A DNA stretch of 64,000 bases, from NCBI RefSeq assembly GCF_902728285.1, contig NW_027103286.1:3356497-3420496 (forward strand). Direction: 5' to 3'. The first letter of the stretch is position 1; the number at the start of each line of letters is the position of its first letter. The DNA is from Clytia hemisphaerica. Its lineage: Eukaryota. Made by a program: the position numbers and the translations under genes. Positions 4,561-62,297 of this stretch are shown here, one piece after another. The notes under the pieces are model-generated. The model was not told where the DNA came from. It saw nothing but the letters and a program-made list of their open reading frames with translations, and ran no database searches.

Positions 4561-5035
4561 TTAAGAAAAAACATCGATTTTTCGCCAAAATCCTCCGAGA
4601 TGGAGTGCAAAAAAATTTTTTTTCGAGATTTTTGAATTTCTTTCTATTACCCTATTCTATTGACAGCATTTTGCACAAAAAATGAAATTCTAAAACCCTT
4701 TACTATGCTGAGAGTAAGCATTTTTCTAAAACAGGTAAACTCGAAAAAACACCCCGACGGAGTGCAAACTCCAGCCTCGTTTGCAATTTTGTCCAGGATA
4801 GACTTTTTAAGACCCGGGTTTCCATAATCAGCATAAAATTTCCGTTCCAACGATGTATAACAACCCCATTCACCTTCTGGGTTAAGCAAAATTGCTATTT
4901 TGTGATTCTGCTCCCAGACTATAAAGTAGTACAATGTGTACTTAGCTCGAGGCTAATCAATATCAACTATTAATTACAAATCTATCTAGAAGGTTGATAC
5001 TCAAGATCAACTATTATTTACAAAGTAATTTAAAT

Positions 5036-7453
5036 TCAATCAATGAAACCAACGCCATGGATAAAAGTGCGACAGTTTCGGCAAGGACAAGTAGTGGGCC
5101 TCCATTGCTTGATTTCTTTTTTAAATTCATCTAGGTTTTTAAGTTTTTTAAAGTCATCGGGAAGGGTAGCCCAGATTTTAGGTCCCAGGAAAGCTAAAGA
5201 CGATTTTCCATTCATTTCACTTTCAACTACTCTACTACGAAAGGAATTCATTTTTCTCGTTTTGATCTTACATTGGTTTTTGAGAAATATTTTACTTTCT
5301 GATTCATTGAGTTTTGATTTAAATAGCTCTGTGGATAAGGATTGAATTGCTCGTTGATGGAAGGTGGAACTGTTGTCAAGTTTCAACAGATCATCGAATG
5401 ATGAGTTGTAGTCTGAGTAAACGATTCTCAAGCATCTTTTATGTAGATTGTTTATTTTATCCTCTAGAGCTCTGCTATGAAACATCCATATGAGAGGACA
5501 GTAATTGAAGTGGCATTTAATGAAAGCATTCATCAAGCGTTTCTTTTTTTCTAAAGTGAGATATGTGCTCATTCTGGCTAAGGCGGTTATTTTCAAACTA
5601 GCTTTCTTGCAAAGATTTTCTATATGCGATTCAAACGTCAAAAGATTATCGAAGGTTACTCCAAGAATCTTTGACGTTTTGGTATTGAAAACAGTTTCTT
5701 CTCTAATATTTAGATAGAGCGAGTCGTCAATGATGTTAACTATTAGCTGACATTTGTCAGCATTACCAACCATTTGATTAATCGAAAGCCATGTGAAGAT
5801 TTTTTCTGCTCCAGAGCTTAGTTTACCACTTACTTCAATCCAGGTAGGAGCACCAACATAGGGTGTCGTATCGTCCGCATAATTCGCAACCTTAGTATCC
5901 TCAATGATGAAAAAGAGGTCACAGATATAAATATTGAAAAACAGAGGGCCAAGGATTGATCCCTGGGGAACACCATCCTTGATCTTGATCCAGTTACTCA
6001 GTTCGTTGCCTACTTTTGTCCTTTGTTGCCTATTTTCTAGATAACTCTTGACTAACCCAGTGGAAAGGTCATCGAACCCGTATGCACTGATCTTTGCTAC
6101 AAGTAATCTGTGGCACATGCAGTCAAAGGCCTTAGAAAGGTCGATGAGCAGTGCCCCAAAAACATCTTTTTTGTCATTGGCTAGCTTCCAGAGCTCTTCC
6201 ATTGGGAGAAGAGAGGTTTGAGTGGAATATCCTTTCCTGAAACCACATTGTTGTTCATCAAAGTAGTGCTCAAAGTATTCTGATATTTGATTGTGATATA
6301 CTCTTTCGTAAATTTTGGATATTACCGGCAGTATACTTATTGGTCTATAGTTACTTTTATCGTTTTTAGAATTTTTCTTGTAGACTGGGGTGACTGTCGC
6401 GAACTTGGAAATGTTGGGAAAAAAGCCTGAGCTGAAGGAGTCATTTATGCTTATAGAGAAGCAGCTTGCAAATAAGTGAGAGTATTTTTTAATTATTTTC
6501 GCTGGTATATCATTTTCCGCTTGAGACTTATTTGTCTTAAGGTTACTAATTATCTTCTCTACTTCGTCTTCGGTGGTGTTTCTAAACTTGAAGGAGTTTT
6601 CATTGTTTGATACCTTTTCTTTTATTTTGAGTATACTAGGGTGGTTTCTAAAAAGCATTATTTCATTTTGAAGAATATTATCAGAAAGTTCATTGAGAGG
6701 CACTGGTTCTGTTGGTGGTTGATTGAGATCTAATTTTTCAGTGATATTTATGAAGAATTCATTAGACATTTTTGCAATTTCTTTATCATCTTTAATCAGT
6801 TCATCATTTTCGACTAAGGTTATTTTCTCACTTATTGGTCCTTTATTAGAGAAAAAAGGGCGCACAGTTTTCCAAAATCTTTTATTGTCAGTGATTTGCT
6901 TTTCATCCAGAGATTCATAAAATCTTCTTTTAGTGTTTCTCAGAAGATATAAGCATCGGTTTCGCTGTTGGTTGTAATTATATTTGTTGATGTTAGAGGG
7001 GTCTTTTCGTTTAATGTTATTAAGTCGAGATCGATGCATCATGGCCTTTCGTAGTGATTTTGTCATGAAAGGTTTATCATTACCTCTTAGTATTTTAGTT
7101 TTTATCGGTGCTTCAGCGTTTAGAAGATTTACTACACTTTTCATTTTATGTTCAAAGTTGCGATTCGACTCTAGTACTTGTGTTAAATGATTTTTGAAAA
7201 GATCTTCGTTAAGATTTTTGTAGCATCTATATTTAATGGCTTTAGGTGGACACTTTTCAAAAGTGGTTTTTAAGACGCTTATTGTGATGTTGTGAAAGTC
7301 CGATAGGCTATTAGATACAGAGGAAGAGCCCTGAAAAATTCTTTGGTAATTTGTTAGCATCAGATCAATGCATTTCGGATTTTCTGCGTTTTTGAAGCAC
7401 GTAGGTTCATTTATCAAGCTAGAAAGCTCCCTGCTAGCAAGAAACTCAGGCAT
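5036..7453 (-). CDS. LINE ORF2 reverse-transcriptase domain ORF (805 aa).
   Basis: ORF track plus RT motifs (FxDD/YADD box, QG box). Confidence 0.85.
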   Translation of the reverse strand: MPEFLASRELSSLINEPTCFKNAENPKCIDLMLTNYQRIFQGSSSVSNSLSDFHNITISVLKTTFEKCPPKAIKYRCYKNLNEDLFKNHLTQVLESNRNFEHKMKSVVNLLNAEAPIKTKILRGNDKPFMTKSLRKAMMHRSRLNNIKRKDPSNINKYNYNQQRNRCLYLLRNTKRRFYESLDEKQITDNKRFWKTVRPFFSNKGPISEKITLVENDELIKDDKEIAKMSNEFFINITEKLDLNQPPTEPVPLNELSDNILQNEIMLFRNHPSILKIKEKVSNNENSFKFRNTTEDEVEKIISNLKTNKSQAENDIPAKIIKKYSHLFASCFSISINDSFSSGFFPNISKFATVTPVYKKNSKNDKSNYRPISILPVISKIYERVYHNQISEYFEHYFDEQQCGFRKGYSTQTSLLPMEELWKLANDKKDVFGALLIDLSKAFDCMCHRLLVAKISAYGFDDLSTGLVKSYLENRQQRTKVGNELSNWIKIKDGVPQGSILGPLFFNIYICDLFFIIEDTKVANYADDTTPYVGAPTWIEVSGKLSSGAEKIFTWLSINQMVGNADKCQLIVNIIDDSLYLNIREETVFNTKTSKILGVTFDNLLTFESHIENLCKKASLKITALARMSTYLTLEKKKRLMNAFIKCHFNYCPLIWMFHSRALEDKINNLHKRCLRIVYSDYNSSFDDLLKLDNSSTFHQRAIQSLSTELFKSKLNESESKIFLKNQCKIKTRKMNSFRSRVVESEMNGKSSLAFLGPKIWATLPDDFKKLKNLDEFKKEIKQWRPTTCPCRNCRTFIHGVGFID

Positions 7454-27539: not shown

Positions 27540-27660
27540 AAAGATCTGACTAGCCTAGTTAACTAAGCCCGTATTCACACGGCTAATGGCAATATAGCGT
27601 TTTCGGTGCTTTAAAAGGTTTTTTATATTTACGGATTTTAAGTTTGCCTTGGAGTCAGTC
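27540..27660. repeat. Dispersed repeat; an inverted copy occurs at ~52130-52260.
   Basis: tgactagcctagttaactaagcccgtattcacacggctaatggcaatatagcgtttttcggtgctttaaa...tttacggattttaagtttgccttgg is the reverse complement of ccaaggcaaacttaaaatccgtaaata...ccgaaaaacgctatattgccataagccgtgtg.cctagc...gggcttagttaactaggcta at 52130-52260. Confidence 0.7.
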
Positions 27661-28002: not shown

Positions 28003-30080
28003 ATGCCTGATAACATCGATCCTCTGAATCTCTTCAGAAAATCAAGTCTTAATATAGCTCATTTAAACGTGAATGGCCTTAGGTCGAAGCTTTATTTCTT
28101 AAAACTTCTCCTTCACCAAGAAAAATTTGATATTCGATGTCTGAATGAGACTAAAATTGACTCGACAATCACTGATAGTGAAGTCTCTATACCTGGGTAT
28201 TTACCCTGTAGGCTAGACCGCGAACATTCTTTCACGATGATTGATCCCAATTTTTCAAATAGCCCTCACGCTAAAGATTGTTCAATTGCTAATATTGGAA
28301 TAAGTGACCATTCAATTGTTTTTCAAAGAAGAGAGAAACCAATATCAATAGACCAAGGACCATAACCGCCAGGTCCTTTAAAAACTTCAACCAAGAGGCT
28401 TTTCTCGAAGACCTAGGGAATCTCGACTGGTCTGACATGCTCAACTCTACTAATGTAGACGAGGTGGCTGATATCTTTAACACCAATGTGCTAGATGTAC
28501 TTGACCGTTATGCTCCTATGGTTTAGAGAAGGATAAGTCATGATAGCCCTCCATGGGTCAACGAGGTACTACTTAATGTTGAAATTCTTAGCCGATCTCA
28601 ATCAGGTTTCCGAAACAAGTATTCAACTGATACAGCAGTTATTTGTGTGTCAGACTTTATATTAGAAGAGCTTGGGAAAGGGAAGTATGTTGGGACTGTA
28701 TTAGTAGATCTCAAGAAGGTCTTTGACACAGTAGATCATAAAATTCTTTTAAAGAAATTATTCTGCTATGGATTTAGGGACTCCTCATTCTCCTGGTTTG
28801 AATCTTATCTGTCAGACCGTCTTCAATGTACACTCCTAGGAGATACTTGCTCGGACATGATGAACGAATGCGCATACGGGGTTCCACAAGGATCGGTCCT
28901 CGGACCATTGTTATTTCTCCTTTATATAAACGATATTGGTCAAAGTATTCGACCTTCTGTGTTCCACTATCTTTACGCAGACGATACCATCATTGCTGTC
29001 AGTTCTGACTGCCCCGTGAGGCTTAGAAAAGATCTATCTGGCCAACTTTCTGAAGTCGGACATTGGTTCAGCCAAAATAAACTCACGGTAAACACGGGCA
29101 AAACCGAAGTCATATATTTTGGAAGAGCAAACAAACTGAAGGAATGCAAGAGGTTGGTCCCTATCCAATTTCAAGGCGACACTCTTGAATGCAAGGAGAA
29201 AATGAAATATCTCGGTGTCATCTTTGATGAAAACCTAAAATGGGATGCCCAGGCAATAGTGCTCGCCAGAAAGCCTATCTCAAACTAAACAAAAGGCATC
29301 TCTAGCTTTCTTGAAGATCACATGAAAAAAATGCTTTTAAATGCTCTTGTTATGCCACACATTACATATTGTTCCAATTCTTGGAGCACTATGTCAAAGG
29401 CAAACCACAACAAGTTTGATTCAGTCCTGAGCAACATCTCTAAAACCATGCCCATCAATAAGACACAAGTATGCAAGGACGTGAAGGTCGAACCGACATC
29501 GACCACCTTGTCAGGGGAGACTTTTGAAACTAAAACGACCAACATCCAAGACCATGCTCGTCTCGACATTGCTGCTAGGGGATTTTGGATTCCTGGCCAG
29601 AAGGCATTCTTCGACGTAAGGGTTTCAACCCAATCGCCAAAAAGTTCAGGAATTCCACTATCTCCAAAGCATGCAATGCAAACGAAAGGGATAAAAAGAA
29701 CATTTATAATTCAAGAATCATGAAAGTTGAGCAACGTCTCTAAAACCGTGCCCATCAACAAGACATTTGATCAGATTGTCGAATACAATAAAACACTGAT
29801 GATGTTCAAAGGGATGCGCAACATTGCGCCAAAATATTTGTGTGATCGGGTAAAGCCTGCTAGCGAGCGACATGAACGCCGCACTCGCTTTGCAAGAGAG
29901 AATAAAGTCTTTGTCCCTCTTTCCAAAAACACTTTTGCTAGTCGAACGTTCATTACCTCAACCACACATCTGTGGAACAATCAACCTTTAGAAATAAAAC
30001 AATGTGAATCCCTTTTATCGTTTAACACTATTTTTATTAGGGGGGTGTTTTCCACAAGCCTAGCACTCTTTTGCTAATAA
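28003..30080 (+). mobile_element. Decayed CR1/L2-like LINE (EN fragment 28003-28365, RT fragment 28647-29288, C-terminal region 29322-30077), with internal deletions and a short internal duplication.
   Basis: EN: LNIAHLNVNGLRSKL...IRCLNETK. RT: GTVLVDLKKVFDTVDH, AYGVPQGSVLGPLLFLLYIND, YLYADDTII. C-terminus: LNALVMPHITYCSNSWS. A duplicated block LSNISKTMPINKTQ (29440) / LSNVSKTVPINKTF (29730). Confidence 0.8.
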
Positions 30081-30910: not shown

Positions 30911-31204
30911 GGTCGACGTTTAGAAACTTATTGCTTATCCCCTTATTGCTTACGCACATTTTGGATTGTGAGAAAAGTGACGACATCTGAGACCGCTTGT
31001 TGATTTGATTCAGCGAAAATGTGTCCCTGTGAAATTTGCACGGAACAGCGGAACACTTTTTTTTCATAAATCTACATCGTAATTATACTACAAAGTTTCG
31101 CAGATAATTGATCTAATTAAAAACTTGTTTTCTAATCTTCTAATGAAAAAACATTGAAAGCGATTATAATCTTTTCTTTCCGAATGCCTCAACGATTACA
31201 CGTT

Positions 31205-31450
31205 TTTATCCATAAGAACATCCAAAATTTTTGAAGCCTTCGGATGTTCTTAACTTTTTGAGTTTATAGCCTAAGAATATTCTTAACATGTTCTTGTTTT
31301 CACCGATTTTTGAGTATTTTTGTCCATTTGCCTAAGAAATCAGGTGTTTTAGAGTCCGCGAAGCCTTAAAATATTCTTAACCTGTTCTTAGTATTTTGGC
31401 CATCGAAGCCTTATGTTCTTGTATAGTTTGTTCTTATGGAAAAACGTGTA
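31205..31450. repeat. 'aagaacat' short interspersed repeat (MITE/SINE-like); other copies at 47520-47720, 51790-52040 and 55215-55500.
   Basis: Shared blocks ...gccttcggatgttcttaac...aaaatattcttaacctgttcttag.attttggccatcgaagc.ttatgttctt...aaaacgtgta... Confidence 0.65.
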
Positions 31451-46545: not shown

Positions 46546-47519
46546 CTTGTCTAAAAATAAATCCGAAAACTCATACAATAGAATGTCGGTAAAGTGTTTC
46601 AGAAGAGTGATAATATTGAATTTTGAATAAATACAAGTCAATCAAAAACAGAACATACCTTGAAAACCAACTTCTCTGAAATGGATTTGAAATTTTGTAC
46701 TGAATTCAATTCAAATCCTTTTTATCTGTTTTGCCAATTAACATTGAACGCGAAGACACTTCTCCTAACCGCCTTTTTGTTGTTGAAAAAATGTTCCTTT
46801 CTGCAGAGATGTGGTTTCGAAAGGATTGTTAAGCCGGAAGAACGTGTTACCCGAACAACAAAAAGATATCACGATTAATTATCTCTGGAGGTCATTAAAA
46901 TAATTACCTCTGAAAGAGGAACACTTTTTTTTTAAAGGTATCCCAATATCATTCTGTAATTATTTTGTTTTGACGCAGAACGTTTCGCTCAAAGCACTGA
47001 AGTTTGCATTATTCTATTACCCTGCTAAAAAACCCACCTCTTTCTATGTTGAAATTCCAAGCGATATTGTCATAAACGGGAACATTTTACGATAAGGAAT
47101 GCAAAACTATCATGAACGGAGAACTTTTTCCAGGTTGAATTTCATCGTAAATAATAGTTTTCCTTGCTGTCAAGAAATACTTAAGGAAAGTTTACATTCT
47201 CAGAGATGTAAAAATTTCAATCCCCAATTTTCCTTGCTGTCGGCTTCTTGAAAACGTTTTACGTTTTTCCCAAAAAAAACTATTTGGCAAAGGATGCAAA
47301 TCTATCATTAGTAAATCTTAGAGAACATACAGCAACGAAGAACATTTTTCAAAAGCCATCTGCTAAATTTTGCGCATCAGTAGGCACTGCGTGAAATTGG
47401 GGAGTTTTCTCATTTTCAGCAATGTTGCTGGCTTCAATGGATTTTACAGAAGAACTGGTATGATTTTTTTGATGATTGAAAAAAGATCTGAAATCTTGAT
47501 ACATTAAAAGAACATTCAA

Positions 47520-47720
47520 AATATTTGGAGCCTCCGGTTTTCAGTTTAAAGCCTAAAAATGTTCTTAACCTGTTCTTATTATCACCATTTTGTGAGTATT
47601 TTTGTCTACTTTCCTACAAAAATAGGAGTGTTCTGAACTTGTTCTTAATACTGTATTTTGGCCATCGAAGCTTTATGTTCTTAATGTTTGTTCGTATAAA
47701 AAAAACGTGTATTTGATAAA
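47520..47720. repeat. 'aagaacat' interspersed repeat copy.
   Basis: aaaatgttcttaacctgttcttattatcaccattttgtgagtatttttgtc...ttttggccatcgaagctttatgttctt...aaaaacgtgta. Confidence 0.6.
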
Positions 47721-48362: not shown

Positions 48363-49690
48363 CTAAATATAACTATCAATAACATTTTTCCATTCCACAC
48401 GATTCAAAGCTTTCCCATACCACTCACATTTCAATATACCAACTTTATTCAAACTTTTGTAAACTCCACGCCCATACGTGAATTCAGGGGCCCCGCGTGG
48501 GCGCCTTTCGCTAACCCAGCATGTCAGCATCTTACGGGGCAAACGATCAGAGGGCATTCGGGTTACGTGCCCTAACCAGCGTAGTTGGCGACGTGTAACA
48601 TATACATCAATAGAGAGCAAACCAGTGCGCTCAAGCAATTCAGCCGTCGAAATTCGGTGGGATCTCACATGATTTAAGTTAACACGGCATATGGTGCGGA
48701 CACAACGAGCATGAAAAACTCTCAACTTTCTATAAACAATTTCAGTAAGGCACCAGTGCTCAGAGCCATATAACAAAATCGCCAGAACAATGCCTTCGTA
48801 GACAGATTTTTTTGCTGCGAACGAAACATTAGTAGAACGGAATAAACAATTTCTCAAAGCTCCAAACGCACTGCTGGCTGCTTTTATTCTCGACTCGACG
48901 TCAAGGGTATCTTTACAATCACGCGATAGGATTGACCCCAGGTAACAAAAACGATCGACGATCGGCATATGGGATGCATCATCGATTTTGACATTACCAA
49001 GATTCGTATTATCGAAAGACAGGGGATCGGTATAGGTTTGGTTCGGAGCAGAAACAAACAAAATTTCAGATTTAGAGCTTTTCTCTTCGGTACCAACATG
49101 GATTTCTAGACCGAATCTTAGAAAATGCTTGACTAGTGGTGGAAGGTAGGTTTCGACAGAGCTTCTTGATGTGAATAGAACTCCGGTATCGTCAGCATAC
49201 TCAGAGTCCGGTAACGAAAACTGTTCACATTTTTTAGTTGAAGGTCGTCTACCGGTTAGGATATCGTCAAACTTGGTGTGAAAGATACAGACTTCTCGTG
49301 TGTGAGTGGTTCTCCAAGATATCATTACAGCAGCAAGGTAGAAAATGAAAAGGAGTGGACCCAGTATATCACCCTGTTTGACACCAATTATACTTTCGAT
49401 CCTTTTAGTGATGTCATTTACAACAAACTTAACTTCCACATTTGCGTGAAGTGATTTAAGCAGACGTACAAGTTTATCAGGGACACCAAAAATATATAAC
49501 ACTTCCCAGAGAAGCTCGCGCGGTACTCGATCAAAGGCTTTGACCAGGTCGAGAAATAATATCCAAGTCTCTTGGCCATGTTCCCTGCGCTTTTTCATTG
49601 CCATTTTTACTGTGAAGATCCCGTCAACACATCCACGCCCAGGACGAAAGCCGCACTGGGGTTCATGGTCAAGGATCTGCTACCACCTCA
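48363..49690 (-). mobile_element. 5'-truncated non-LTR retrotransposon fragment (RT domain, RTE/L2-like).
   Basis: 413-aa ORF 48363..49604 with FLDLVKAFDRVPRELL, GVKQGDILGPLLFIFYL, EYADDTGVLF. An upstream extension QILDHEPQCGFRPGRGCVDGIFTV (to ~49690) ends abruptly, as expected for 5' truncation. Confidence 0.85.
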
Positions 49691-50395: not shown

Positions 50396-51729
50396 TCAGG
50401 AGATACCAAGATATTCTCTGAGACATTTCGGTAGATTATCATTCAGAAAGGTGTCACTGAAACTTCTCAAGCAAGCCATTCGTGCGATATGTTTCAAGGA
50501 GATTTTCAAATGATTATATGGTGGAGTTACTTTCGCAAATTGTAGCACACTGTTTGGATTTCGGAATGCTATCTCCTGCATGTGTAAATTGAATGAAAAG
50601 TCACCAATCCATCTCTTGAAATCATGAATTATACTTTGTTCTCCCGATCCAAAATCATACAAATAAATTGACGCGAATCGTTTGTTTCCTCCTGGAGTGA
50701 CTTGAAGGCCAGTGATGAAGTACTGCCCAAAACATTCCACAACTTTGTTGAAAAAGATATGTTTTCCTTGGTAAAGCAAATTGATTATTTTCAATGGGAT
50801 AACCTCATTTTTGCTGTTGACTTGAAAGAATTTTAAGCTTTTTACCCTCGTTTTGATATCGCTCAAGTGCATAAAGAATACAGATTTTGACAAATGGTAC
50901 AACATTTGATCCTCGAAAGTCTCTTTTTCATCATCAATAGTCACTCGTTCAGCCAGAACTTGATTTCCTGAAAAATCGAAACCATATAAGAACGGACCAT
51001 ATAATCATAGTCGTGGATAAAAATTCTCTCCGAACTAATATCTATGGACAGCTGGAGATCTATGTGGGATGTGTCGAATGTACCGGGTTCGAAACTAAGC
51101 TCAGTACAATTACTCAGCACAACACGCTTGAAATGTGATAGCTTTGTCTTGTCCATTAAGACAATATCAGCCACAAAATTAAAACCACCGGTAGAAACAA
51201 GCACCATTAAGGCGTAACCATATTCTTTGGTTTTTCCCTGCCAAAAACATTGGATGCACTGCAAAGCTTTATATGGCTCCAGTTCAATGACACAATCCTC
51301 CGTTTCTTGAAAAGTGGTTGATACAATACTTCCTGGAGGAGCACCTAAAAGGTGTTTCATGCTTCCACTATGTAATATCAAAGGTTGGCTCCCATCTTCC
51401 AAAGTCGAAGGCTTCTCAAACACAAACCAACGATTAAGTGAAGCGTTATAGGGCCAATCACATTCTAAAAAATTAGAATCGTTCCACGTTGGTAATTTAA
51501 TCAAACTCATTTGTAATTTAGCTGTTTCCTCATTGAATGAATAAACAGCGATGACATGATCATCTGTGCTGTCCCATGGCCTGGTATATGAAGTATAATA
51601 TCTTCCAGAGCTGTCAAAGCCACACACAGTTCGGTATACGGGCGGGTCAAGTCCAGTCCACGTTTCTTTTGTCTCTACACATTCGGTGAGATGAGGTGGT
51701 AAGAACACTTGCCGTGGGTAAGCCAACAT
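50396..51729 (-). pseudogene. SOCS-box family copy 1, split into two overlapping ORFs by a frameshift near 50941 and ~13 bp shorter than copies 2 and 3; divergent (~60% aa identity) apart from its first ~25 codons.
   Basis: ORFs 50941..51729 (MLAYPRQVFLPPHLTECVETKE...) and 50396..50944 (...NHLKISLKHIARMACLRSFSDTFLNDNLPKCLREYLGIS) are collinear with the 448-aa copies but in different frames. Confidence 0.55.
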
Positions 51730-51789
51730 TCCTTTTTTGATATTTGAGGATTATCTTAACTCGTTTGCATTTTTATTCCTGAAAAAACA

Positions 51790-52040
51790 AAAACAGATTA
51801 TACGATGGCGAAAGTGTTAAGAACAAGTTAAGAACATTTTAAGGCTTTGGCGACTTTTAAACACCCGATTTCTTAGGAAAACGGACAAAAATACTCAGAA
51901 AATGCTGAAAATAAGAAAATAAGAACATCTTAAGAACATTTTTTGGCTTAAAATCAAAAAAGTTAAAAGCATCAGAACATCCGAAGACTTCAAAAATTTT
52001 GGATGTTCTCATAAAAAGAAGACGTGTATGGACTGGAGCA
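51790..52040. repeat. 'aagaacat' repeat copy (reverse orientation) just upstream of SOCS-box copy 1; the same repeat sits upstream of copy 2 (55215-55500).
   Basis: Reverse-complement match to the 31205-31450 family; 51730-52060 is ~95% identical to 55130-55500. Confidence 0.6.
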
Positions 52041-52079
52041 TAATAGGTCATTCTTCAGTAGCCTAGAAATCTAAGCTAG

Positions 52080-52260
52080 TTTGATTCAGTCACTTGGATA
52101 AATCTGATGGTTAAGTTGTGACTGAATAACTAGTATTCCAAGGCAAACTTAAAATCCGTAAATATAAAAAATCTTTAAAGCGCCGAAAAACGCTATATTG
52201 CCATAAGCCGTGTGTCCTAGCCTTGTGAATACGGGCTTAGTTAACTAGGCTAATTCTTCA
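52080..52260. repeat. Insertion of the 27540-27660 repeat family (inverted) in duplication unit 1; it is absent from the unit-2 paralogous position (~55500).
   Basis: See 27540-27660. The flanking sequence cattcttcagtacccttgacaataaat.atggattgattttttggcc is shared with 55501-55560. Confidence 0.55.
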
Positions 52261-53783
52261 GTACCCTTGACAATAAATAATGGATTGATTTTTTGGCCTA
52301 TTCCACAGAAAAATTAGCCTGTACCACCCCGAATGCCAACAGGCGATTTTGTCTTTTCTGCAAAGAAAAGTTTGGTACAAGTTCCAAAGAATGTATTTAG
52401 AGAATTGAGAGGGGTTACGCAAATGAAGACAGACAAACATTTTCATTGAAAGACTGACATGACAGGCAAGACTTGCAAGGTAGAAAAGTGCGTAAAATAT
52501 CGATGAATTTAAAAATTTCGTAGTCATGATTGATACCACGAGATAGAAAATGATATTAAGAGATTTACAAATTATGATAGGATATACAGTCATTGAAAGC
52601 GGAGAGTCTAACCTAAGATAGAGTGGTCTACCAGTTGTCATCAAACATCATAAAAGATGCGCCCAAGAGATGAAAATTTTCACAATGTCCAGAATTGAAA
52701 ATTAGATTTAAGTCTCAGACACAAAAAATGGCACCTGTTTGTGTAATTTACAGACCAGAATAGCAGGTTTGCAGGTTAAAGTGATTTTTTAAAAACCTTT
52801 TTAACAGTTTTTTTACTCTGCTTAAAGCTTTCAACAATACGTCAATGAATTAATTTTTGCTGGAGAATTTGATCGCTGACACTTGATTGATGTTCGAGGA
52901 ATGATTTTTTATAAATTCTTTTCCCTAACTTTCTCAGATTTTTGATGGACACTACACAATTTTCGCAGTGACTGCCGGGTGTGCCAGAAATAAATTAGCT
53001 TCTTGGATTTGATATTGTAGACAGTAGAAAAGAGATTTTTCAAAGTTTTTTTTCGGAATCAATCAGAAGAAACTTAAAATTTGGTGTATTACTTCTTAAT
53101 TTTACTGCATTAGTTTAAAAGTTATGTTCAAAAACTTAAAATGTCAATTCTAAAAAATCGATTTCATGCATCAGGAAATGTATTTCCATTATGTAAAAAG
53201 CACTTATTTACAAGGTTAGGCATCCCTGTAAATACATTCCATCATCTGTGAATCGAGATGAGCTGCAACAGTTTTGTGCAACTTTTGCAACTTCAAATTT
53301 TGTGAAAGTGAAACTCTCACCTTTCTCAACGATATGATGCACACACAGGAAAACTTTTGGAAATTCTTGGAAAGATGTTGAAAGATTTGTGGGGGTTGAA
53401 GCATTCTGCATCTTGCCCAAGGGGAAAAAACAATAGAGGTAAAGAAAGCAGAGTGTTACAAGGAGTAAGACTTTAAAATGTTTTGGCCTGCAAGTCCTTT
53501 CTCTCATAAATCGATACCCTTGTTTTTAGCCTTTTGACAATTTTTAAAAACTAACATTTTAGGTTTTTGAACATAACTTTTGAACCGATGAAGCAAAATT
53601 AAAAAGTAATACACAAAATTTTAAGTTAGGCTTTCTCTGAACGATTCCGAAACAGTCTTTGAAAAATAATGTTACTGCCTGCAATATCAAGTCAGCGAGG
53701 GTTACTTATTTCTGGCACACTCGGTATATATAAAAAAATTGTCAGAAACTTTGTTTTAAATTTACTCTAAATTTTGCGTCATT

Positions 53784-55130
53784 TCAAGCGAGTCCAAGAT
53801 ATTTACTGAGACATTTCGGTAGATTGTCCTTCAAGAATTCGTCATGAAAACTTTTCAAGCAAGCCATTCGTGCCATATGTTTCAAGGACATGTTTAAATG
53901 ATCAAAAGGAGAATTCACTTTTACGAAGCGTAGATAAGGGCTTGATAAATACATCAAACTTGCTGTTGGGTCAAAAAGCGCTATTTCCGCCATATGCCAA
54001 TTAATTGAAAAACCGTAAATTTCTCTTCTACAATCGTACCGGATCATCAGTTCTCCTGATTTGAAGTCGTACAAACAAACCGAATGAAATGGTTGGGAGC
54101 CTGCTTCTGAAGTGACTTGAAGGCCTTCGACAAAAAATTGATCAAAACATCCAACGACTTTGTGTAAAATAATATCGTTTCGTCCATGACACAAATTAAT
54201 TCTTTTCAATGGGATGACCTCATTTTTATTGTCGACTTGAAAGACCTTTATGCTTTTTGCCTTCGTGTCAACGTTCTCCAAAAAAACATAGAAGATCGAG
54301 TTTGACAAATGATATAAATCATTAAAATTCTGAACACCTTCCCTTTCGGAGATTGTGACTTCATAATCCATAAGGCGATTTCCCTCAAAATCAAAACCAT
54401 ATACCATACCATATTCATAATTATGAAGGTAAATTCTCTTAGAATTCATATCTAGCGATACACCAGAATTATGGAACGCAAACGTTCTAGGTTCGAAATC
54501 CATTTCAGTGCAACTGCTCAACACAACACGTTGGAAATGTGAAAGTCTTTTTTCGCCTATTAAAACGATGTCAGCCACAAAATTGTAACCACCAGGAGAT
54601 ACAAGCACCATCAAGACGTAACCATATTCTTTGGTTTTTTCCTGCCAAACACTATGGATGTAATGAAAAGCTTTATATGGCTCCAGTTCAATGACACAAT
54701 CCTCCGTTTCTTGAAAAGTGGTCGATACAATACTTCCTGGATAAGCATATAAAAGGTGTTTCAAGCTTCCACTGTGTAATATCAAAGGCTGGCTCCCATC
54801 TTCCAAAGTCGAAGGCTTCTCAAACACAAACCAACGATTAAACAAAGGATCATACGGAAAGTCATATTCATTATAGCGCAAGTTCCATGATGGTAATTGA
54901 ATTAAACTCACTTGTAGTTTATCTGTTTCCTCATTGAATGAATAGACGCTTATGATATTGTCACCTGCTTTATCCTCAGCTCCGCAATATACGGTGTAAT
55001 ATTTCCCAGAGCTGTCGAAGCCACTCATACTTATTTGCTGGGGGCGGTCAAGACCAGCCCACATTTCTTTTGTCTCAACACATTCGGTGAGATGAGGTGG
55101 TAAGAACGATTGACGTGGGTAAGCCAACAT
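53784..55130 (-). CDS. Intronless gene (copy 2 of a tandem triplet) for a 448-aa protein with a C-terminal SOCS-box-like motif and an uncharacterised ~400-aa N-terminal domain.
   Basis: Uninterrupted ORF with ATG at 55130. C-terminus ...SPFDHLNMSLKHMARMACLKSFHDEFLKDNLPKCLSKYLGLA resembles the SOCS-box consensus (SLqHLCR..I........LPLP..L..YL). Confidence 0.6.
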   Translation of the reverse strand: MLAYPRQSFLPPHLTECVETKEMWAGLDRPQQISMSGFDSSGKYYTVYCGAEDKAGDNIISVYSFNEETDKLQVSLIQLPSWNLRYNEYDFPYDPLFNRWFVFEKPSTLEDGSQPLILHSGSLKHLLYAYPGSIVSTTFQETEDCVIELEPYKAFHYIHSVWQEKTKEYGYVLMVLVSPGGYNFVADIVLIGEKRLSHFQRVVLSSCTEMDFEPRTFAFHNSGVSLDMNSKRIYLHNYEYGMVYGFDFEGNRLMDYEVTISEREGVQNFNDLYHLSNSIFYVFLENVDTKAKSIKVFQVDNKNEVIPLKRINLCHGRNDIILHKVVGCFDQFFVEGLQVTSEAGSQPFHSVCLYDFKSGELMIRYDCRREIYGFSINWHMAEIALFDPTASLMYLSSPYLRFVKVNSPFDHLNMSLKHMARMACLKSFHDEFLKDNLPKCLSKYLGLA

Positions 55131-55214
55131 TCCTTTTTTGATATTTGAGGATTATCTTAACTCGTTTGCATTTTTATTCCTGAAAAAACAAAAACAGATT
55201 ATACAATGTAAGGT

Positions 55215-55500
55215 GTGATCTACACGTTCTTTTCTATAAAGAACAAACTATATAAGAACATGAAGCTTCAATGGCCAAAGTGTTAAGAACAAGTTAAGAA
55301 CATTTTAAGGCTTAGGCGACTTTTAAACACCCCATTTCTTAGGAAAACGGACAAAAATACTCAGAAAATGGTGAAAATGAGAAAATAAGAACATGTTAAA
55401 AACATTTTTAGGCTTAAAATTAAAAAGGTTAAGAACATCCGAAGGCTTCAAAAATTTTGGATGTTCTCATAAAAAGAAGACGTGTATGGACTGGAGCATA
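55215..55500. repeat. 'aagaacat' repeat copy upstream of SOCS-box copy 2.
   Basis: As for 51790-52040. Confidence 0.6.
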
Positions 55501-55974
55501 ATAGGTCATTCTTCAGTACCCTTGACAATAAATTATGGATTGATTTTTTGGCCTATTCCACAGAAAAATTAGCCTGTACCACCCCGAATACCAACAGGCG
55601 ATTTTGTCTTTTCTGCAAAGAAAAGTTTGGTACAAGTTTCAAAGAATGTATTTAGAGAATTGAGAGGGGTTACGCAAATGAAGACAGACAAACATTTTCA
55701 TTGCCTAAAGACTGACATGACAGGCAAGACTTGCAAGTTAAAAAATTCGTAAAATATCGATAAATTTAAAAATTTCGTAGTCATGATTGATACCACGAGA
55801 TAGAAAATTATATTAAGAGATAAACAAATTATGATAGGATATACAGTCATTGAAAGCGGAGAGTCCTTTTTTATGAATTATAAAATTGTATAAAATGGTT
55901 ATTTTAAAAGTGTATAAATATTATGAAAATAATAAATAATTTTTTGCAAAATCCGAAATTTAAATATAAGATGG

Positions 55975-56340
55975 CATGGAATGAACCCCCCCCCCAGCCC
56001 GCAGGGGGGGGGGGCTATAACCAACATCTTCCTGAAAAGGCTGGGGGCTGGATTTTTTTTAAATTTCAGGGGGTACCTATGAACTCTGGGGGCACCTAAC
56101 TTTTATACAGTAAGGTCTGGGGGCTGGGGAACTATATTTTATATCTTGCTTTTATCTAACTATCATTATTCTTTTTAATTATAAAAATATACAATTTTTT
56201 CATTTCTTGACATATACTCAAGTCATAGAGGGTACCAATCACAGGGGGTACCTACTAACGTCTGTTGTTTGGGGGTACCTAAAATTCAGGGGGTACCTAT
56301 TTTCTTAGGAGTACCTAAACCCCTGGTCCATGCCATGGAT
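55975..56340. mobile_element. MITE with catggcatgg-type termini, C/G homopolymer runs and internal 'gggggtacct' repeats.
   Basis: gatggcatggaatgaaccccccccccagcccgcaggggggggggg ... repeated gggggtacctat/gggggtacctaa ... cccctggtccatgccatgg. Confidence 0.5.
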
Positions 56341-56871
56341 TGGGAATGATAAGATACTTTCATAATAGAATTTGATTGATTCAAATGACCACGTAAAAAA
56401 TATTCTCTCTTTGCAGTGAACTTTCTCAAATTGAATTGATCCCTTTTTATCTGGCTGGGGAGATAAGATAAGTATTAATTTTTATAATGCGTTCTATCAA
56501 ATAACTTGATAAATTCTATCAGAAGTTAAAAGGTCAAAAGCGAGCCATAAAAAATCTTCAACCTAAGATATATAACCTACCAGTTATGCTAAACATTACA
56601 GAAGTTATGCGCAAAAGATGAACATTTTCAAAGTGCTAGAATTGAAAATTAGATTTAATTAAGGACTTATTTACAAGGTTAGGCATCCCTGTAAATACAT
56701 TCCATCATCTGTGAATCGAGATGAGCTGCAACAGTTTTGTGCAACTTTTGCAACTTCAAGTTTAGTGAAAGTGCAACTTTTACCTTTCTCAACGATATGA
56801 TGCACACACCTAGGAAAACTTTCGGAAATTCTTGGAAAGATGTTGAAAGATTTGTGGGGGAGAAGTAGATT

Positions 56872-57290
56872 TATGACAGAGCTGGCACATACAGAAGGTG
56901 AGTGACACTACAGAAAGTGAGTGACACTACAGAAAGTGAGTGACACTACAGAAAGTGAGTGACACTACAGAAAGTGAGTGACACTACAGAAAGTGAGTAC
57001 ACTACAGAATGTGAATGACACCTGTGAACTTATTCTTTAGGTAGTGCTGGAGGTGTTGAATTTGACCCATGTGTTGCAATTTTAGAAACACTCATTGGTC
57101 GAATTCCGGTGTTTTTGGGTGTTTCCGATAGGGAACATGACTTTAATGCTTTTATAGATAACCAGAAAATTATTTACAACTTGAAACTTACTCTGTGATG
57201 ACACTCACTTTCTGTTAGGTGTCATTCACGTTCTGTAGTGTACTCACTTTCTGTATGTGCCAGCTCTGTCATAAATCTACTACCTGGGGG
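56872..57290. mobile_element. Complete MITE with ~30-bp TIRs (gaagtagatttatgacagagctggcacat / atgtgccagctctgtcataaatctactac) and subterminal 20-bp tandem repeats, inserted in duplication unit 3. The paralogous empty site is at ~53400.
   Basis: 56860 gatttgtggggg|a gaagtagatttatgacagagctggcacatacagaaggtgagtgacactacag(x5)... ...ttctgtatgtgccagctctgtcataaatctactac|ctgggggtagaggtattctgcatc. Unit 2 has gatttgtgggggttgaagcattctgcatc uninterrupted. Confidence 0.75.
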
Positions 57291-57717
57291 TAGAGGTATT
57301 CTGCATCTTGTTTATGCCCAAGGGAAAAACAGAAGTAAAAAAAAACAATAGAGATAAAGAAAACATAGAGTGTTACAAGGAAAAAGACTTTGTACTTTAA
57401 AATGTTTTGGCCTGCAAGTCCTTTCTCTCATAAAACGATACCCTTGTTTTTAGCCTTTTGACAATTTTTTAAAATTGACATTTTAGGTTTTTGAACATAA
57501 ATTTTGAACCAATGAAGTAAAATTAAAAAGTAATACACCAAATTTTAAGTTAGGCTTTCCTCTGAATGATTCCGAAACAATCTTTGAAAATCTTTCTGTT
57601 ACTGCCTGCAATATCTAGTCAGCGAGGGTAACTTATTTCTGGCACACTCGGTATATACAAAAAATTGTCAGAAACTATTTTATTTTAAATTTAGTCTAAA
57701 TTTTGTGTCATTTCAAC

Positions 57718-59064
57718 TCAAGCGAGTCCAAGATATTTAATGAGACATTTCGGTAGATTGTTCTTCAAGAATTCGTCATGAAAACTTTTCAAGCAAGCCA
57801 TTCGTGCCATATGTTTCAAGGACATCTTTAAATGATCAAAAGGAGAATTCACTTTTACGAAGCGAAGATAAGGGCTTGATAAATACATCAAACTTGCTGT
57901 TGGGTCAAAAAGCGCTATTTCCGCCATATGCCAATTAATTGAAAAACCGTAAATTTCTCTTCTACAATCGTACCGGATCATCAGTTCTCCTGATTTGAAG
58001 TCGTACAAACAAACCGAATGAAATGGTTGGGAGCCTGCTTCTGAAGTGACTTGAAGGCCTTCGACAAAAAATTGATCAAAACATCCAACGACTTTGTGTA
58101 AAATAATATCGTTTCGTCCATGACACAAATTAATTCTTTTCAATGGGATGACCTTATTTTTATTGTCGACTTGAAAGACCTTTATGCTTTTTGCCTTCGT
58201 GTCAACGTTCTCCAAGAAAATATAGAAGATTGAGTTTGACAAATGATATAAATCATAAAAATTCTGAACACCTTCCCTTTCAGAGATTGTGACTTGATAA
58301 TCCATAAGGCGATTTCCCTCATAATCAAAACCATATAACATACCAAAATCATAATTATGAAGGTAAATTCTCTTAGAATTCATATCTAGAGATACACCAG
58401 CATTACTGAACGCAAACGTTCCGAGTTCGAAATCCATTTCAGTGCAACTGCCCAACACAACACGTTGGAAATGTGAAAGTCTTTTTTCGCCTATTAAAAC
58501 GATGTCTGCCACAAAATTGTAACCACCAGTAGAAACAAGCACCATTAAGACGTAACCATATTCTTTGGTTTTTTCCTGCCAAACACATTGGATGTAATCA
58601 AAAGCTTTATATGATTCCAGTTCAATGACACAATCCTCCGTTTCTTGAAAAGTGGTAGATACAATACTTCCTGGAAGAGCACCTAAAAGGTGTTTCAAGC
58701 TTCCACTGTGTAATATCAAAGGCTGGCTCCCATCTTCCAAAGTCGAAGGCTTCTCAAACACAAACCAACGATTTAACAAAGGATCATACGGCAAGTCATA
58801 TTCATTATAGCGCAAGTCCCATGATGCTAATTGAATTAAACTCACTTGTAGTTTATCTGTTTCCTCATTGAATGAATAGACGCTTATGATATTGTCACCT
58901 GTTTTATCCTCAGCTCCGCAATATACGGTGTAATATTTCCCAGAGCTGTCGAAGCCACGCATACTTATTTGCTGGGGGCGGTCAAGACCAGCCCACATTT
59001 CTTTTGTCTCAACACAATCGGTGAGATGAGGTGGTAAGAACGATTGACGTGGGTAAGCCAACAT
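57718..59064 (-). CDS. Intronless gene (copy 3) for a 448-aa SOCS-box-like protein, ~93% identical to copy 2.
   Basis: ORF with ATG at 59064. C-terminus ...FDHLKMSLKHMARMACLKSFHDEFLKNNLPKCLIKYLGLA. Confidence 0.6.
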   Translation of the reverse strand: MLAYPRQSFLPPHLTDCVETKEMWAGLDRPQQISMRGFDSSGKYYTVYCGAEDKTGDNIISVYSFNEETDKLQVSLIQLASWDLRYNEYDLPYDPLLNRWFVFEKPSTLEDGSQPLILHSGSLKHLLGALPGSIVSTTFQETEDCVIELESYKAFDYIQCVWQEKTKEYGYVLMVLVSTGGYNFVADIVLIGEKRLSHFQRVVLGSCTEMDFELGTFAFSNAGVSLDMNSKRIYLHNYDFGMLYGFDYEGNRLMDYQVTISEREGVQNFYDLYHLSNSIFYIFLENVDTKAKSIKVFQVDNKNKVIPLKRINLCHGRNDIILHKVVGCFDQFFVEGLQVTSEAGSQPFHSVCLYDFKSGELMIRYDCRREIYGFSINWHMAEIALFDPTASLMYLSSPYLRFVKVNSPFDHLKMSLKHMARMACLKSFHDEFLKNNLPKCLIKYLGLA

Positions 59065-59719
59065 TTCTTTTTTGAAAATACTCTGAACTTTATTTCATAT
59101 TTATTATCACTAAAACAGAGAAAAATACAAAATAGACAGTTAACTCTCACTTATTCAAATTAGAGTGGGGAGTCCAATCTGTACCAATTATATACAGAGA
59201 GATTCAAATAATTGAAATTATTTTTTTAAGTAGGGTTTTCACTTGACAGGAACTGAGTATTTGTTCCAATTAAAGAAAGAATCCAATAATTAATATAATT
59301 TCCAATTAGCGAGAGTATCTGTATCTGAACTGTATCCACTGTAACTGAATTTCATATAAAGAAATGCTTCTCTGAGAAATATTAGCTTTATTCAATGCTC
59401 AATTGACCTAATGACTAGTGTCATAGGAAGAAGAAGAGTTGGTATTTTCATTCTAAATCTTGTCATTAAATGTACTGATAAGAACGAATTACTAAAATAC
59501 TAATCATCATTATCATTTTTCTTTTGTTCAACCTCTACAGTTATAAAACAAGCTGAATGCCAAAAGATTTCACAAGAAAATTATTGGATTTTATCGATTT
59601 TTAGTAAAAAGTTAAAAAATGATCTAATTAAACTTTACAAAAGTAAGATGTACGCATAGACTCTCATAATCCCAAATTAAACCATACAAAAGGAGATTCT
59701 TTCTTGTTTTTTTGGGTAT

Positions 59720-62297
59720 TTATACAGTCAATTCCTGTTTTACGGTGGTTTCAGCTGTCTCGTTCAAAGAAACAGCATTCTGTGCAGTTTTATTGAATTC
59801 TTTGCCTAACTGCTCAATGACACTGGTTAAGTATGCGGGGAGTGCTTTGAAAGGAGTCGTGGAAGGTGTGAAGAAATGATGACTTCTGCGTGCTAACAGA
59901 CGAAGTGCTTTCCATTGGAAGTTTGGTTTATTCACGATCTTGTATTCGTCCTCTATACCGGCTTCTGGATCTGCTTGTTCAACTGCTTCCTCGAAGAAAG
60001 GTTCCAGCTGTGGAAGGAATTTCAATCTACTCTCTGCTTTGCATGCCTCCATGTTATCTGACAAATGAGAAACAAAAGATGACTAAGTATTCGAAATAGA
60101 AGCTGTCCATCAGGCTTGATATTAATTTGGAGTAAAGCCTCATTGGATATAGACAGTAATCTCAAAACTTAGCCATGACCACCAGGTTTTAACAGAAAAA
60201 TCTTACTTAAAGATATAGTGGTCAAGCTAAAAGTTTTTAACCGCTTTAAAAAATTTCAAACTTACCTGGACAGAGGTTCCATAATTTGGTGAGTTCAGGT
60301 GTACCAAGATTGATCTTTTTCTTTGTGTTATTTAAGAATTCATCTCCTACACTTCTCTTCACACCTCGTGTCTTGACCATTCGTTTCCCTCTCATCACCT
60401 CTCGGACCTGAGGCTTTGGTGCAGTCAGCTTCTGTTCAGCTTTGGCAAAGGATTGGCAGCCTTCGTTCTTCCAAGAAATCCAGTTCTCCTCACGAGTTAA
60501 CACGTGTCGGACGACGTTTGCAAATTTCTTTCCTTTTGGAGGTGTATCGTTTATAATGCCATAAACACGATCAACCAACTCGTGAACCCAGAGTGATTGT
60601 TTCTCAAGCAGTTTATAATTGGCTTGTGTTTTAAACTTAACCTCGCCTGTCAAATACTGACACAAAATCAAGATTTGGACAAGGAAATATCGACGAAAAT
60701 TACTATCATTGATTTGAAGGTCCAACAACTTTTCGTTGGTAAGATATTTAGGGAAATAATCTGCGTTCCCGCTTGTGCTCATAATGTCAGCAAATGTAAC
60801 GTCGTCAACTGCATTGGATCCTCCTTTGCTGCGTTTCTTTTCGTTGTATTCGATCTTGTAGTTCTCAAACACATTCAGAATCTAAAATTCAAAAAGTATG
60901 ATAACAGTTGAAAATGCTAAAAAGACAAACAAGAAATTAGCCTACAATACTTTGAGCTGCAGGAGTTTGGTTAAACTGCCATTTAAAAACACTCAAAGCA
61001 GATAAGCTTTCAAGCACTTATAATCTCGGAACAGATTCTGATATTCTGCGCATGACACGCATTCACTCAAGAGAATCTGCCCAGGTTGGTGCACCGCTTT
61101 GATCTTTTCTCAAAATTACTGTCAAGCTATTTAAAAATTCTTCTCTGACTCTTTATCCCTTTAGGCATCTATTCCTTAACTTTTTATGCAAAATATCTCA
61201 AAGAGCCTAAAATGAGACCCCTCCCCCTCCTCTTATCTCAAGATTAAAGTTGTGCAATAAAGTTGGAAATTTGACCAGTAATAGATATTGCTAAATAAAG
61301 ATGATTTGCGAAATTTTTGGTCATCCATCATCCACACTGTTCAAATTTCACGAAACAATATAAGTCCAATAAAAATTTTTCAATCAAGGGAGAGGAGGGG
61401 GCTTTGTGCCTCCAAGATACGTGAAGGGTTAAAAGTCCTATAACTGTTGCTATACTAGGTAACCTAGACCATACTTACTTCAGTAACATAGTTCTTGAAC
61501 TTTTTCCATCCCTCTGGTTTGAAGCATTGGTTAGGCTGCCTGAAAAAATCCTGAAGGAACCAAAATCGATAATATAGATTGAAATCAATAGGACTTGCAA
61601 CCTCTGGGATGTCAGTATCGTTATCATCAAGGAGAGCCTCCATATTGAATTCCTCTTTGTTTTTCTTGTAAACAGTCAAGTTTTCTGTGTGAAACTGACT
61701 CATAATGTTCAATGCTGATTTCTCTTCCACTGGGAATAAACAAGCTAAGAACAGTTGAATGCGACCACAAAAGATAGTGTTCAGAGATTTTGAAAGTCTT
61801 CGAAGGATATCATTGCACATGCGCAATAGGTGATTTTTACCAAGTTTGAAAAAAGGTTCAGCTGTCCATATCTTAACATTGTCCTCTACAAAATTGAAAA
61901 GTTTTTCACATTCAGTCAATGTTAAGGCATCAAAAATATCACTCATCAATGTGATTGGAAGGTAGGATGTGCACTTGTTTTGTTGAGCGTGGAGAATAAT
62001 CATATTCAATGAATTTTGGAACAATGTGATTTTCTCAAATGATGTATCTCCATTCTTGACAATTTCCATGTCTGTGCCATCTTCGTTTTGATGGCCGACA
62101 ACAACACAACTATCTGTTATCTTACCAGCAATGAATTGTCGGAAAGCTTGATCTAACGCTGATTTTTTATCTGCATCACCACCAGTGCAATCATTCCACG
62201 TTTCCTCTATGACCTTATCACAATCATCGTTAGCTATCGAACGAATTGCTGACAGAAATTTTTCAACCGTCTCCACAAAATTTATTCCACTTGCCAT
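59720..62297 (-). CDS. THOC1: THO complex subunit 1 (THOC1/Hpr1) orthologue; three exons, 590 aa, with no C-terminal death domain.
   Basis: Exons 61479-62297 (ATG 62297), 60266-60881, 59720-60057; GT-AG junctions in phase (1773 nt = 591 codons). Matches to human THOC1: LLRMCNDILRRLSKSLNTIFCGRIQLFLACLFP ~ LLRMCNDLLRRLSKSQNTVFCGRIQLFLARLFP; YLTNEKLLDLQINDSNFRR ~ FLTSEKLMDLQLSDSNFRR; WISWKNEGCQSF ~ WNSWKNEGCPSF; TKLWNLCPDNMEACKAES ~ TRLWNLCPDNMEACKSET; FFEEAVEQADPE; WKALRLLARRSHHFF. Confidence 0.9.

Follow-up and report, generated by a model that had tools for sequence, protein, structure and literature searches.

The central gene of a three-gene tandem array in the hydrozoan Clytia hemisphaerica is a hybrid. 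The array lies in a 64,000-nucleotide stretch of contig NW_027103286.1, referred to here as the window, and a tblastn search of the window with a 448-amino-acid open reading frame (ORF) recovers its three members, A, B and C, as tandem copies, all on the minus strand. B is a mosaic that combines an A-type upstream region with a C-type body, and it was probably made by one unequal crossing-over between the ancestral C and A genes. The order on the minus strand is THOC1, C, B, A. The copies and their neighbour are located as follows:

50396-51729, minus strand: copy A (copy 1 of the first-pass annotation), homologous to B and C along its full length, frameshifted.
53784-55130, minus strand: copy B (copy 2 of the first-pass annotation), an intact 448-amino-acid ORF; the hybrid gene, with A-type upstream region and C-type coding body and 3' flank.
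57718-59064, minus strand: copy C, an intact 448-amino-acid ORF that lay outside the first-pass comparison.
59720-62297, minus strand: THOC1 exons, three ORF pieces matching Pfam efThoc1 at E = 6e-15 to 1e-50.

The first-pass annotation had compared A with B alone and described near-identical 5' flanks followed by a sharp drop in identity near codon 25. Self-BLAST and a MAFFT alignment examined in sliding windows bear out both observations. The flanks that match are:

51730-52608, minus strand: 5' flank of A, 96.7% identical to that of B; it contains a 185-bp A-only insertion (52068-52252) and is without 62 bp found in B.
55131-55865, minus strand: 5' flank of B, the counterpart of 51730-52608 in A.

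Once the 62-bp indel (B 55209-55270, missing in A) is set aside, the identity of about 95% between 51690-52060 and 55090-55500 stands. The aligned flanks differ at 22 of 667 nucleotides (3.30% divergence, 96.7% identity). Identity is 98.7% closest to the start codon (A 51730-51807 against B 55131-55208) and 92%, counting gaps, in the next segment (A 51805-52067 against B 55271-55525; 13 mismatches in 252 aligned nucleotides). The match itself was rightly recognized, but its extent of about 400 bp was underestimated: broken by the 185-bp A-only insertion, it runs on to A 52608 and B 55865 at 96.1% identity over 359 nucleotides. BLAST E-values for the flank match range from 1e-34 to 1e-168, far outside chance.

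The drop inside the coding sequence is equally clear. Maximum chi-square analysis places the A-B change-point at nucleotide 85 of the coding sequence (A 51645, B 55046; chi2 = 139), with 29 mismatches in 752 positions to its left and 67 in 215 to its right. Uniform divergence across flank and coding sequence is excluded by this result and by the sliding windows, which show the step directly, and a GENECONV-type test (Sawyer-type permutation) joins maximum chi-square in supporting a recombination boundary. The earlier description of the remainder of the gene as about 60% identical does not hold, as the A and B coding sequences are 73.6% identical overall (26.4% of positions differ) and not uniformly so: a second tract of high identity (A 51166-51436) reaches 91.5%, and the sequence outside it is about 67% identical.

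Adding C to the comparison shows which copy is chimeric. In three-way sliding windows, A and B are 94-100% identical in the flank and 55-80% identical over most of the coding sequence, whereas B and C are 94-100% identical in the coding sequence and 3' flank and 33-48% identical, that is, unrelated, in the 5' flank. The B and C coding sequences differ at 44 of 1347 nucleotides (3.27%; 96.7% nucleotide and 93.3% amino acid identity), and A differs from C to exactly the same degree as from B. The 5' flank of C is about 62% identical to those of A and B from about -60 to -12 and at least 90% identical from -11 on. Because B shares its 5' flank with A but its coding sequence and 3' flank with C, the chimera is B and not A. 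The first-pass annotation had thus recognized the kind of event, a chimeric duplication or conversion near the 5' end of the coding sequence, but had assigned it to the wrong copy. The last THOC1 exon ends about 650 bp upstream of the C start codon in the sense of transcription; since the 5' flank of C abuts this exon, C stands first in the array, with an upstream region of its own.

Each half of the hybrid has diverged from its parent to the same extent, 3.30% (22/667) for the flank and 3.27% (44/1347) for the coding sequence. Equal divergence on both sides of the junction fits a single event, which predicts this equality.

A different account of the A-B flank match, also raised in the first-pass annotation, is purifying selection on a shared promoter or 5' untranslated region (5' UTR) that keeps the flanks alike while the coding sequences drift. 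The signals relevant to this account include those of other paralogues, about 70% identical to the array genes, on the ENA contigs L001 to L003 (ERZ27264644 / ERZ27264675):

55221-55486: 'aagaacat' repeat region in the B flank, one copy of a ~265-bp dispersed repeat.
55180-55197, minus strand: polypyrimidine tract then CAG (acceptor-like) in B, about -50 from the ATG; A counterpart 51779-51796.
About 59110-59125 in C, about 40-57 in L001 and about 99-115 in L002: acceptor-like signal in the other homologues.

The A counterpart of the 'aagaacat' repeat lies at 51808-52028 and is 5'-truncated by the 62-bp deletion; two further copies, both inverted, are found in the window at 31197-31450 (82%) and 47509-47711 (69%). 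A TATAAT box reported about 75 bp upstream of the ATG is present at -73 to -68 in A and B (A 51797-51802), but its interpretation as a promoter element does not survive, and it is missing at -73 to -68 in C and in two outgroup copies. Selection on the upstream region is extremely improbable as the cause of the match, even though there is just one mismatch in the first 78 nucleotides upstream of the ATG and both the TATAAT box and the acceptor-like signal are present. Identity of 95-97% continues for about 0.9 kb, straight through the copy of the dispersed repeat, and the flank divergence of 3.3% corresponds to the B-C synonymous rate (synonymous divergence, pS, of 0.041). The flank and the TATAAT box are absent from C and from the distant copies D (L001) and E, which have the same conserved N-terminus with only the acceptor-like signal, and it is implausible for coding sequence to drift faster than 0.9 kb of non-coding flank. 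The near-identity of the A and B flanks is best attributed to recent shared ancestry rather than constraint. The possibility that one and the same transposable element inserted independently in front of both genes was also considered and rejected, as identity is continuous through unique sequence, 5' UTR and ATG, and the junctions are identical. The GC content of the window is 36.6%, compared with a published 35% for the C. hemisphaerica genome (bioRxiv 10.1101/369959), and because the window is hydrozoan nuclear DNA, bacterial promoter concepts are not applicable. The 'aagaacat' and TATAAT motifs should not be annotated as promoter elements.

The mosaic structure of B is part of a larger tandem duplication whose two units meet at the start of B:

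51730-55130: duplication unit X1, comprising the upstream region of A, the spacer, and the 3' flank and coding sequence of B.
55131-59064: duplication unit X2, comprising the upstream region of B, the spacer, and the 3' flank and coding sequence of C, with X2-only insertions at 55866-56559 and 56861-57284.

Short-word BLAST finds X1 and X2 collinear from end to end in eight blocks spanning both units, interrupted only by copy-specific insertions and deletions. Divergence per block is 1.1-5.8%, excepting the 3'-flank block beside a miniature inverted-repeat transposable element (MITE), at 8.5%, and a 103-bp spacer block, at 20%. The spacer block in question aligns 52609-52711 with 56560-56660 and is flanked by blocks at 3-5%. 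The insertions specific to one unit are:

52068-52252: 185-bp insertion in the A flank only, with an 11-bp direct repeat ATTCTTCAGTA at both ends and 18-nucleotide imperfect terminal inverted repeats.
52712-53197: 486-bp insertion in X1 only, in the spacer.
55866-56559: 694-bp insertion in X2 only, with a C10/G11 palindrome and several GGGGGTACCTA motifs.
56864-57281: 420-bp MITE in X2 only, with 40-nucleotide terminal inverted repeats at 98% identity and a 19-nucleotide unit repeated six times.

Judged by its ends, the 185-bp insertion appears MITE-like, and a partial copy of it is present at 27551-27653. The X2 MITE sits in the 3' flank of C and is missing from that of B; another copy is present at 443-672. 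The X1 spacer insert (52776-53158) is largely an inverted copy, at 77-86% identity, of the 3' flank of B (53540-53770), and the two together form a large inverted repeat around 53159-53539. Further copies of the 694-bp insertion were not found within the window.

One crossover would explain jointly why X1 and X2 are collinear, why divergence on the two sides of the junction is an equal 3.3%, why the breakpoints coincide and why C has a separate flank on its THOC1 side. The same arrangement could in principle have arisen in an old three-gene array, without any crossover, if B had been overwritten by two long conversions meeting at the start codon: C would have converted the coding sequence and 3' flank of B, and either A would have converted the 5' flank of B or B that of A. 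Short conversion tracts do exist in this array, and the pattern of A-B and B-C identity alone cannot tell conversion from crossover. This history is nevertheless unlikely. It needs independent tracts of at least 0.9 kb and at least 1.9 kb that cover the entire unit, meet within 30 nucleotides of each other and have equal ages (3.30% against 3.27%); the spacer is collinear as well, and a single crossover covers all of these features.

False tandem duplications are a known failure of haplotype-merging assembly pipelines, and X1 and X2 might accordingly be two haplotypes of one unit misplaced in tandem, leaving only two genes. Short reads were the basis of the published Clytia draft, in which haplotypes were separated and then merged (bioRxiv 10.1101/369959), which lends this possibility some substance. 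An artefact of this kind is still very unlikely, since X1 and X2 differ by 3.3% and by five indels of 62-694 bp, compared with a polymorphism of about 0.9% reported for the inbred strain (bioRxiv 10.1101/369959). Both units end at paralogous positions of the genes, and neither the joins nor the rest of the window contain any N. If the window comes from that draft, a join would also have had to be made via an exact overlap of about 18-28 nucleotides, against a reported k-mer of 91.

Returning to the single crossover, its position within the gene is complicated by putative older exchanges between A and the B/C lineage, which would have left two patches of low divergence:

51645-51740, minus strand: patch 1, positions -11 to +85; counterparts B 55046-55141 and C 58980-59075.
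51166-51436, minus strand: patch 2, about codons 99-188; counterparts B 54570-54840 and C 58504-58774.

Divergence in patch 1 is 7/96 (7.3%) between A and B and 9/96 (9.4%) between A and C, and in patch 2 it is 8.5% and 7.4%, respectively, compared with 33% for the sequence between and after the patches. Synonymous divergence was calculated by codon region for the pairs A-B, A-D and B-D, with the L001 paralogue D, ~70% identical to A, B and C, as the outgroup control:

Codons 1-25: A-B pS 0.12; A-D and B-D pS 0.66 and 0.72.
Codons 26-100: A-B pS 0.54; A-D and B-D pS 0.50 and 0.71.
Codons 101-175: A-B pS 0.09; A-D and B-D pS 0.56 and 0.57.
Codons 176-420: A-B pS 0.61; A-D and B-D pS 0.63 and 0.53.

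Every pS value against D falls between 0.45 and 0.75. The contrast between patch and rest at A-B synonymous sites is strong (Fisher p = 4e-4 and 3e-10), whereas for A-D synonymous sites the Fisher test is non-significant. Because synonymous divergence is low in the patches for A-B but not against the outgroup, patches 1 and 2 are inferred to be short ectopic conversion tracts that joined A with the B/C lineage before B and C split. Sawyer-type permutation of variable sites supports the internal fragment (coding-alignment columns ~300-566; p <= 2e-4 for both A-B and A-C), and the N-terminal fragment is marginal (p = 0.04 for A-B, 0.19 for A-C), so that patch 2 is the strongest gene-conversion signal of the array. 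The high identity of codons 1-25 is common to A, B and C, and the N-terminal peptide ML[AP]YPRQxFLPPH[LV]TECVET is kept in the distant copies D and E, with a non-synonymous divergence (pN) of 0.07-0.09 in all pairs. An explanation of the N-terminal identity purely by protein constraint is therefore half right: the peptide is kept in D and E, yet synonymous divergence from D is 0.66-0.72, against 0.12 between A and B. The step at codons 25-28 thus appears to be the 3' edge of the older conversion tract. The first-pass annotation had placed the conversion boundary within the first ~80 nucleotides of the coding sequence; a step does lie there, at nucleotide 85, but as the edge of this older patch and not as the junction of the recent event.

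The switch of B from A-type to C-type sequence lies inside this 96-nucleotide patch, where A and C are 91% identical. The last upstream site at which A equals B but not C is -2, and the first site at which B equals C but not A is +18, followed by +22, +23, +54, +68, +73 and +78. Both homology breakpoints fall within about 30 nucleotides, at paralogous positions, and delimit the following interval:

55113-55141, minus strand: junction interval in B, -11 to +18 of the ATG; equivalents A 51712-51740 and C 59047-59075.

Of the six differences that separate A from B and C in nucleotides 18-75, polarisation with D identifies three (+18, +68 and +73) as derived states that B and C share, indicating that codons 6-25 of B come from the lineage of C. 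Divergence between A and B also rises from 3.3% in the flank to 10.3% in nucleotides 18-75 (Fisher p = 0.02, on 6 differences). A recent junction within -11 to +18 of the ATG, rather than at codons 25-28, is favoured by these observations but not proven.

The hybrid might instead have been formed by a crossover near nucleotide 85, with B taking the flank and about 28 codons of A and a later B-to-C conversion covering -11 to +85. The maximum chi-square A-B change-point does sit at nucleotide 85, B and C differ at just 2 of 96 positions between -11 and +85, and the difference between the flank and nucleotides 1-75 is only marginal (p = 0.054). Such a history is rather unlikely, however, given that A and B differ at seven sites in nucleotides 18-85, where about 2-3 would be expected at 3.3%, and B equals C at all of them. 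Half of the six differences in nucleotides 18-75 are, moreover, the derived states common to B and C, and in the absence of the earlier conversion A and C would be about 77% identical there, as D is, making a poor substrate for crossing-over.

The proposed history with a junction near the start codon would thus involve four steps. A and C would have formed the original and oldest pair, with about 33% nucleotide divergence outside the patches and synonymous sites near saturation. Ectopic conversion between A and C, as suggested by the synonymous-site statistics, would then have homogenised -11 to +85 and about codons 99-188. In the third step, A would have misaligned with C on the other chromatid, and a crossover within the first homogenised tract, at -11 to +18 of the ATG, would have produced a chromatid with C, hybrid B and A. 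B would in this way have acquired the upstream region of A together with the body, 3' flank and spacer of C, and the full interval from one start codon to the next, which then measured about 2.8 kb, would have been duplicated in tandem, a product of the anti-Lepore type of non-allelic homologous recombination. Finally, as the present sequences show, the units gained four insertions and lost 62 bp in one deletion, and A acquired a +5 frameshift.

Several points weigh against this history. The array and the order of events rest on one assembled genome, and the step between the flank and nucleotides 18-75 rests on 6 differences (p = 0.02), which leaves the exact junction only loosely placed. X1 and X2 do not diverge quite evenly, with blocks at 1.1-5.8% and the one 103-bp spacer block at 20%. 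The homology available for crossing-over is also short, about 96 nucleotides at 91-93% identity today with exact runs of about 18-28 nucleotides around the junction. This is small for classical non-allelic homologous recombination, and a template switch during replication, guided by microhomology, would be an equally good fit. A search for orthologous loci returned three short ENA contigs only, none with a usable far flank of A/B type or C type.

The upstream regions of the array share one signal. A polypyrimidine tract ending in AG is found at -46 to -56 in all five homologues, namely A, B, C and two outgroup copies. Spliced-leader trans-splicing is in use in hydrozoans (PMC3273482), and the conserved upstream polypyrimidine-AG could be a cis-splice or spliced-leader trans-splice acceptor. 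By its structure, B would place a C-type protein under whatever cis-signals the upstream region of A carries.

The three copies differ in coding state. The 262-amino-acid ORF of A (50941-51729) is identical to UniProt A0A7M5TQR3 of C. hemisphaerica. Relative to B and C, A has a +5-nucleotide indel near 50993-50997 that leads to a frameshift and a TGA at 50941-50943, leaving two ORFs of 262 amino acids (50941-51729) and 182 amino acids (50396-50944). A0A7M5TQR3 is thus the truncated protein that the frameshifted gene encodes. As 182 codons of the second frame remain open, the lesion would be of recent origin, a polymorphism or a mistake of the assembly. A short intron around 50980-51010 that would rescue the frame was considered and rejected, as inspection finds no spliceable segment that restores it. 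The intact B and C genes were not found in the protein database searched. The outgroup paralogues are disrupted as well: the reading frame of L001 (D) is interrupted by a TAA, that of L002 (E) is broken into two ORFs, and L003 carries an internal deletion that leaves its N-terminal motif fused directly with the C-terminal region.

An exhaustive HMMER search returns 49 representative relatives; those with names are all from Clytia, one of them named 'SOCS box domain-containing protein' in UniProt, and the rest are from ENA contigs. An AlphaFold model of B (predicted local distance difference test, pLDDT, 82; predicted template modelling score, pTM, 0.84) shows a beta-propeller followed by three short C-terminal helices at residues 416-427, 430-436 and 439-444, and Foldseek matches the model to propellers, including KLHDC10-EloB/C and the DCAF1 WD domain. 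The SOCS-box label of the first-pass annotation would be compatible with these helices, with the UniProt name and with the C-terminal consensus of the family, SLKHxARLACL...LPKCLxxYLGI, which resembles a BC box plus Cul5 box. It is not backed by profile searches. The Pfam SOCS_box profile (PF07525; cut-off 23.5 bits) has no match at E <= 0.01 in B, C or 23 family members, its best match being the C-terminal 47 residues of A scanned alone (13.1 bits, E = 0.12), and a C-terminal family profile searched against the PDB found no SOCS-box chain. A role for the family as a SOCS-box-like cullin-RING adaptor is plausible but unproven. B resembles the beta-propeller plus SOCS/BC-box receptors of cullin-RING ligases (WSB1, KLHDC10) in its modelled propeller and C-terminal helices, and differs from them in that the Clytia family falls below the Pfam SOCS_box cut-off.

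B and C differ by 33 non-synonymous and 11 synonymous changes, a dN/dS (ratio of non-synonymous to synonymous rates) of 0.75. Together with the disrupted copies, this ratio fits birth-and-death evolution of a fast-evolving family. The B-C differences are unevenly distributed along the coding sequence, with 13 in the first 450 nucleotides, 26 in the middle 450 and 5 in the last 447, which suggests either that the 3' third was homogenised afterwards or that the middle of the propeller has been under diversifying selection.

Every gene from THOC1 through A lies on the same strand. Other features of the window include reverse-transcriptase sequences:

48363-49604, minus strand: reverse-transcriptase fragment (Pfam RVT_1), downstream of A.
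5036-7453, minus strand, and 28647-29288, plus strand: other RVT_1 ORFs, retrotransposon copies or fragments.

Large inverted and tandem repeats, 77-90% identical, occupy 796-4860. A 1141-amino-acid ORF without a Pfam match lies at 19797-23222 on the plus strand; close to its start, it contains an internal direct repeat (19804-20041 against 20014-20257, 74% identical).

Hybrid genes of the anti-Lepore type, formed by unequal crossing-over, are known from the human delta/beta-globin locus, and comparable chimeras occur in the red/green opsin and CYP21A2/CYP21A1P genes. The Clytia array resembles the anti-Lepore type in its order of upstream parent, hybrid and downstream parent, in a hybrid that takes its 5' part from the downstream gene and its 3' part from the upstream one, in the tandem duplication of the whole inter-gene interval and in a junction at paralogous positions. 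It differs in that the junction lies at the very start of the coding sequence, leaving a protein that is essentially all C-type with its upstream region swapped, and in that the junction homology is short, in the tens of nucleotides. The Clytia event is, in addition, an old one (3.3% diverged) that is fixed in the assembled genome, rather than a segregating disease allele, and its reciprocal deletion product is not observed.

The two older patches have a parallel in interlocus conversion between tandem duplicates, of which a Drosophila survey is an example (Osada and Innan 2008, PMC2588116). The Clytia tracts of ~96 and 271 nucleotides are similar in having low divergence, including at synonymous sites, within otherwise diverged paralogues, and in being detected by Sawyer-type and synonymous-site tests. 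They differ in being judged with an outgroup paralogue rather than by an orthologue-based test of phylogenetic incongruence, and in that one of them coincides with a constrained peptide motif, so that constraint and conversion overlap.

There is a small chance that the crossover has a wider meaning, as a regulatory swap in a fast-evolving and possibly hydrozoan-restricted family of beta-propeller/SOCS-like ubiquitin-ligase adaptors, with B replacing a decaying A, or that the array is expressed by spliced-leader trans-splicing. In the case of a swap, the repeated patchy conversion and the dN/dS of about 0.75 would be signs of a family that diversifies by birth and death, in the manner of immune or self-recognition genes; in the case of trans-splicing, the 'promoter' flank would be irrelevant. 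The hybrid gene itself is real, but it reflects ordinary textbook dynamics of a tandem array, and the locus bears on no open question of the field. It is useful as a clean, datable illustration of the growth of a tandem family. Its history may be read in four layers, of which the first is a duplication of long standing. Short ectopic conversions came next, one of the converted patches would then have seeded the unequal crossover, and the latest layer consists of the insertions, the deletion and the frameshift in one copy.

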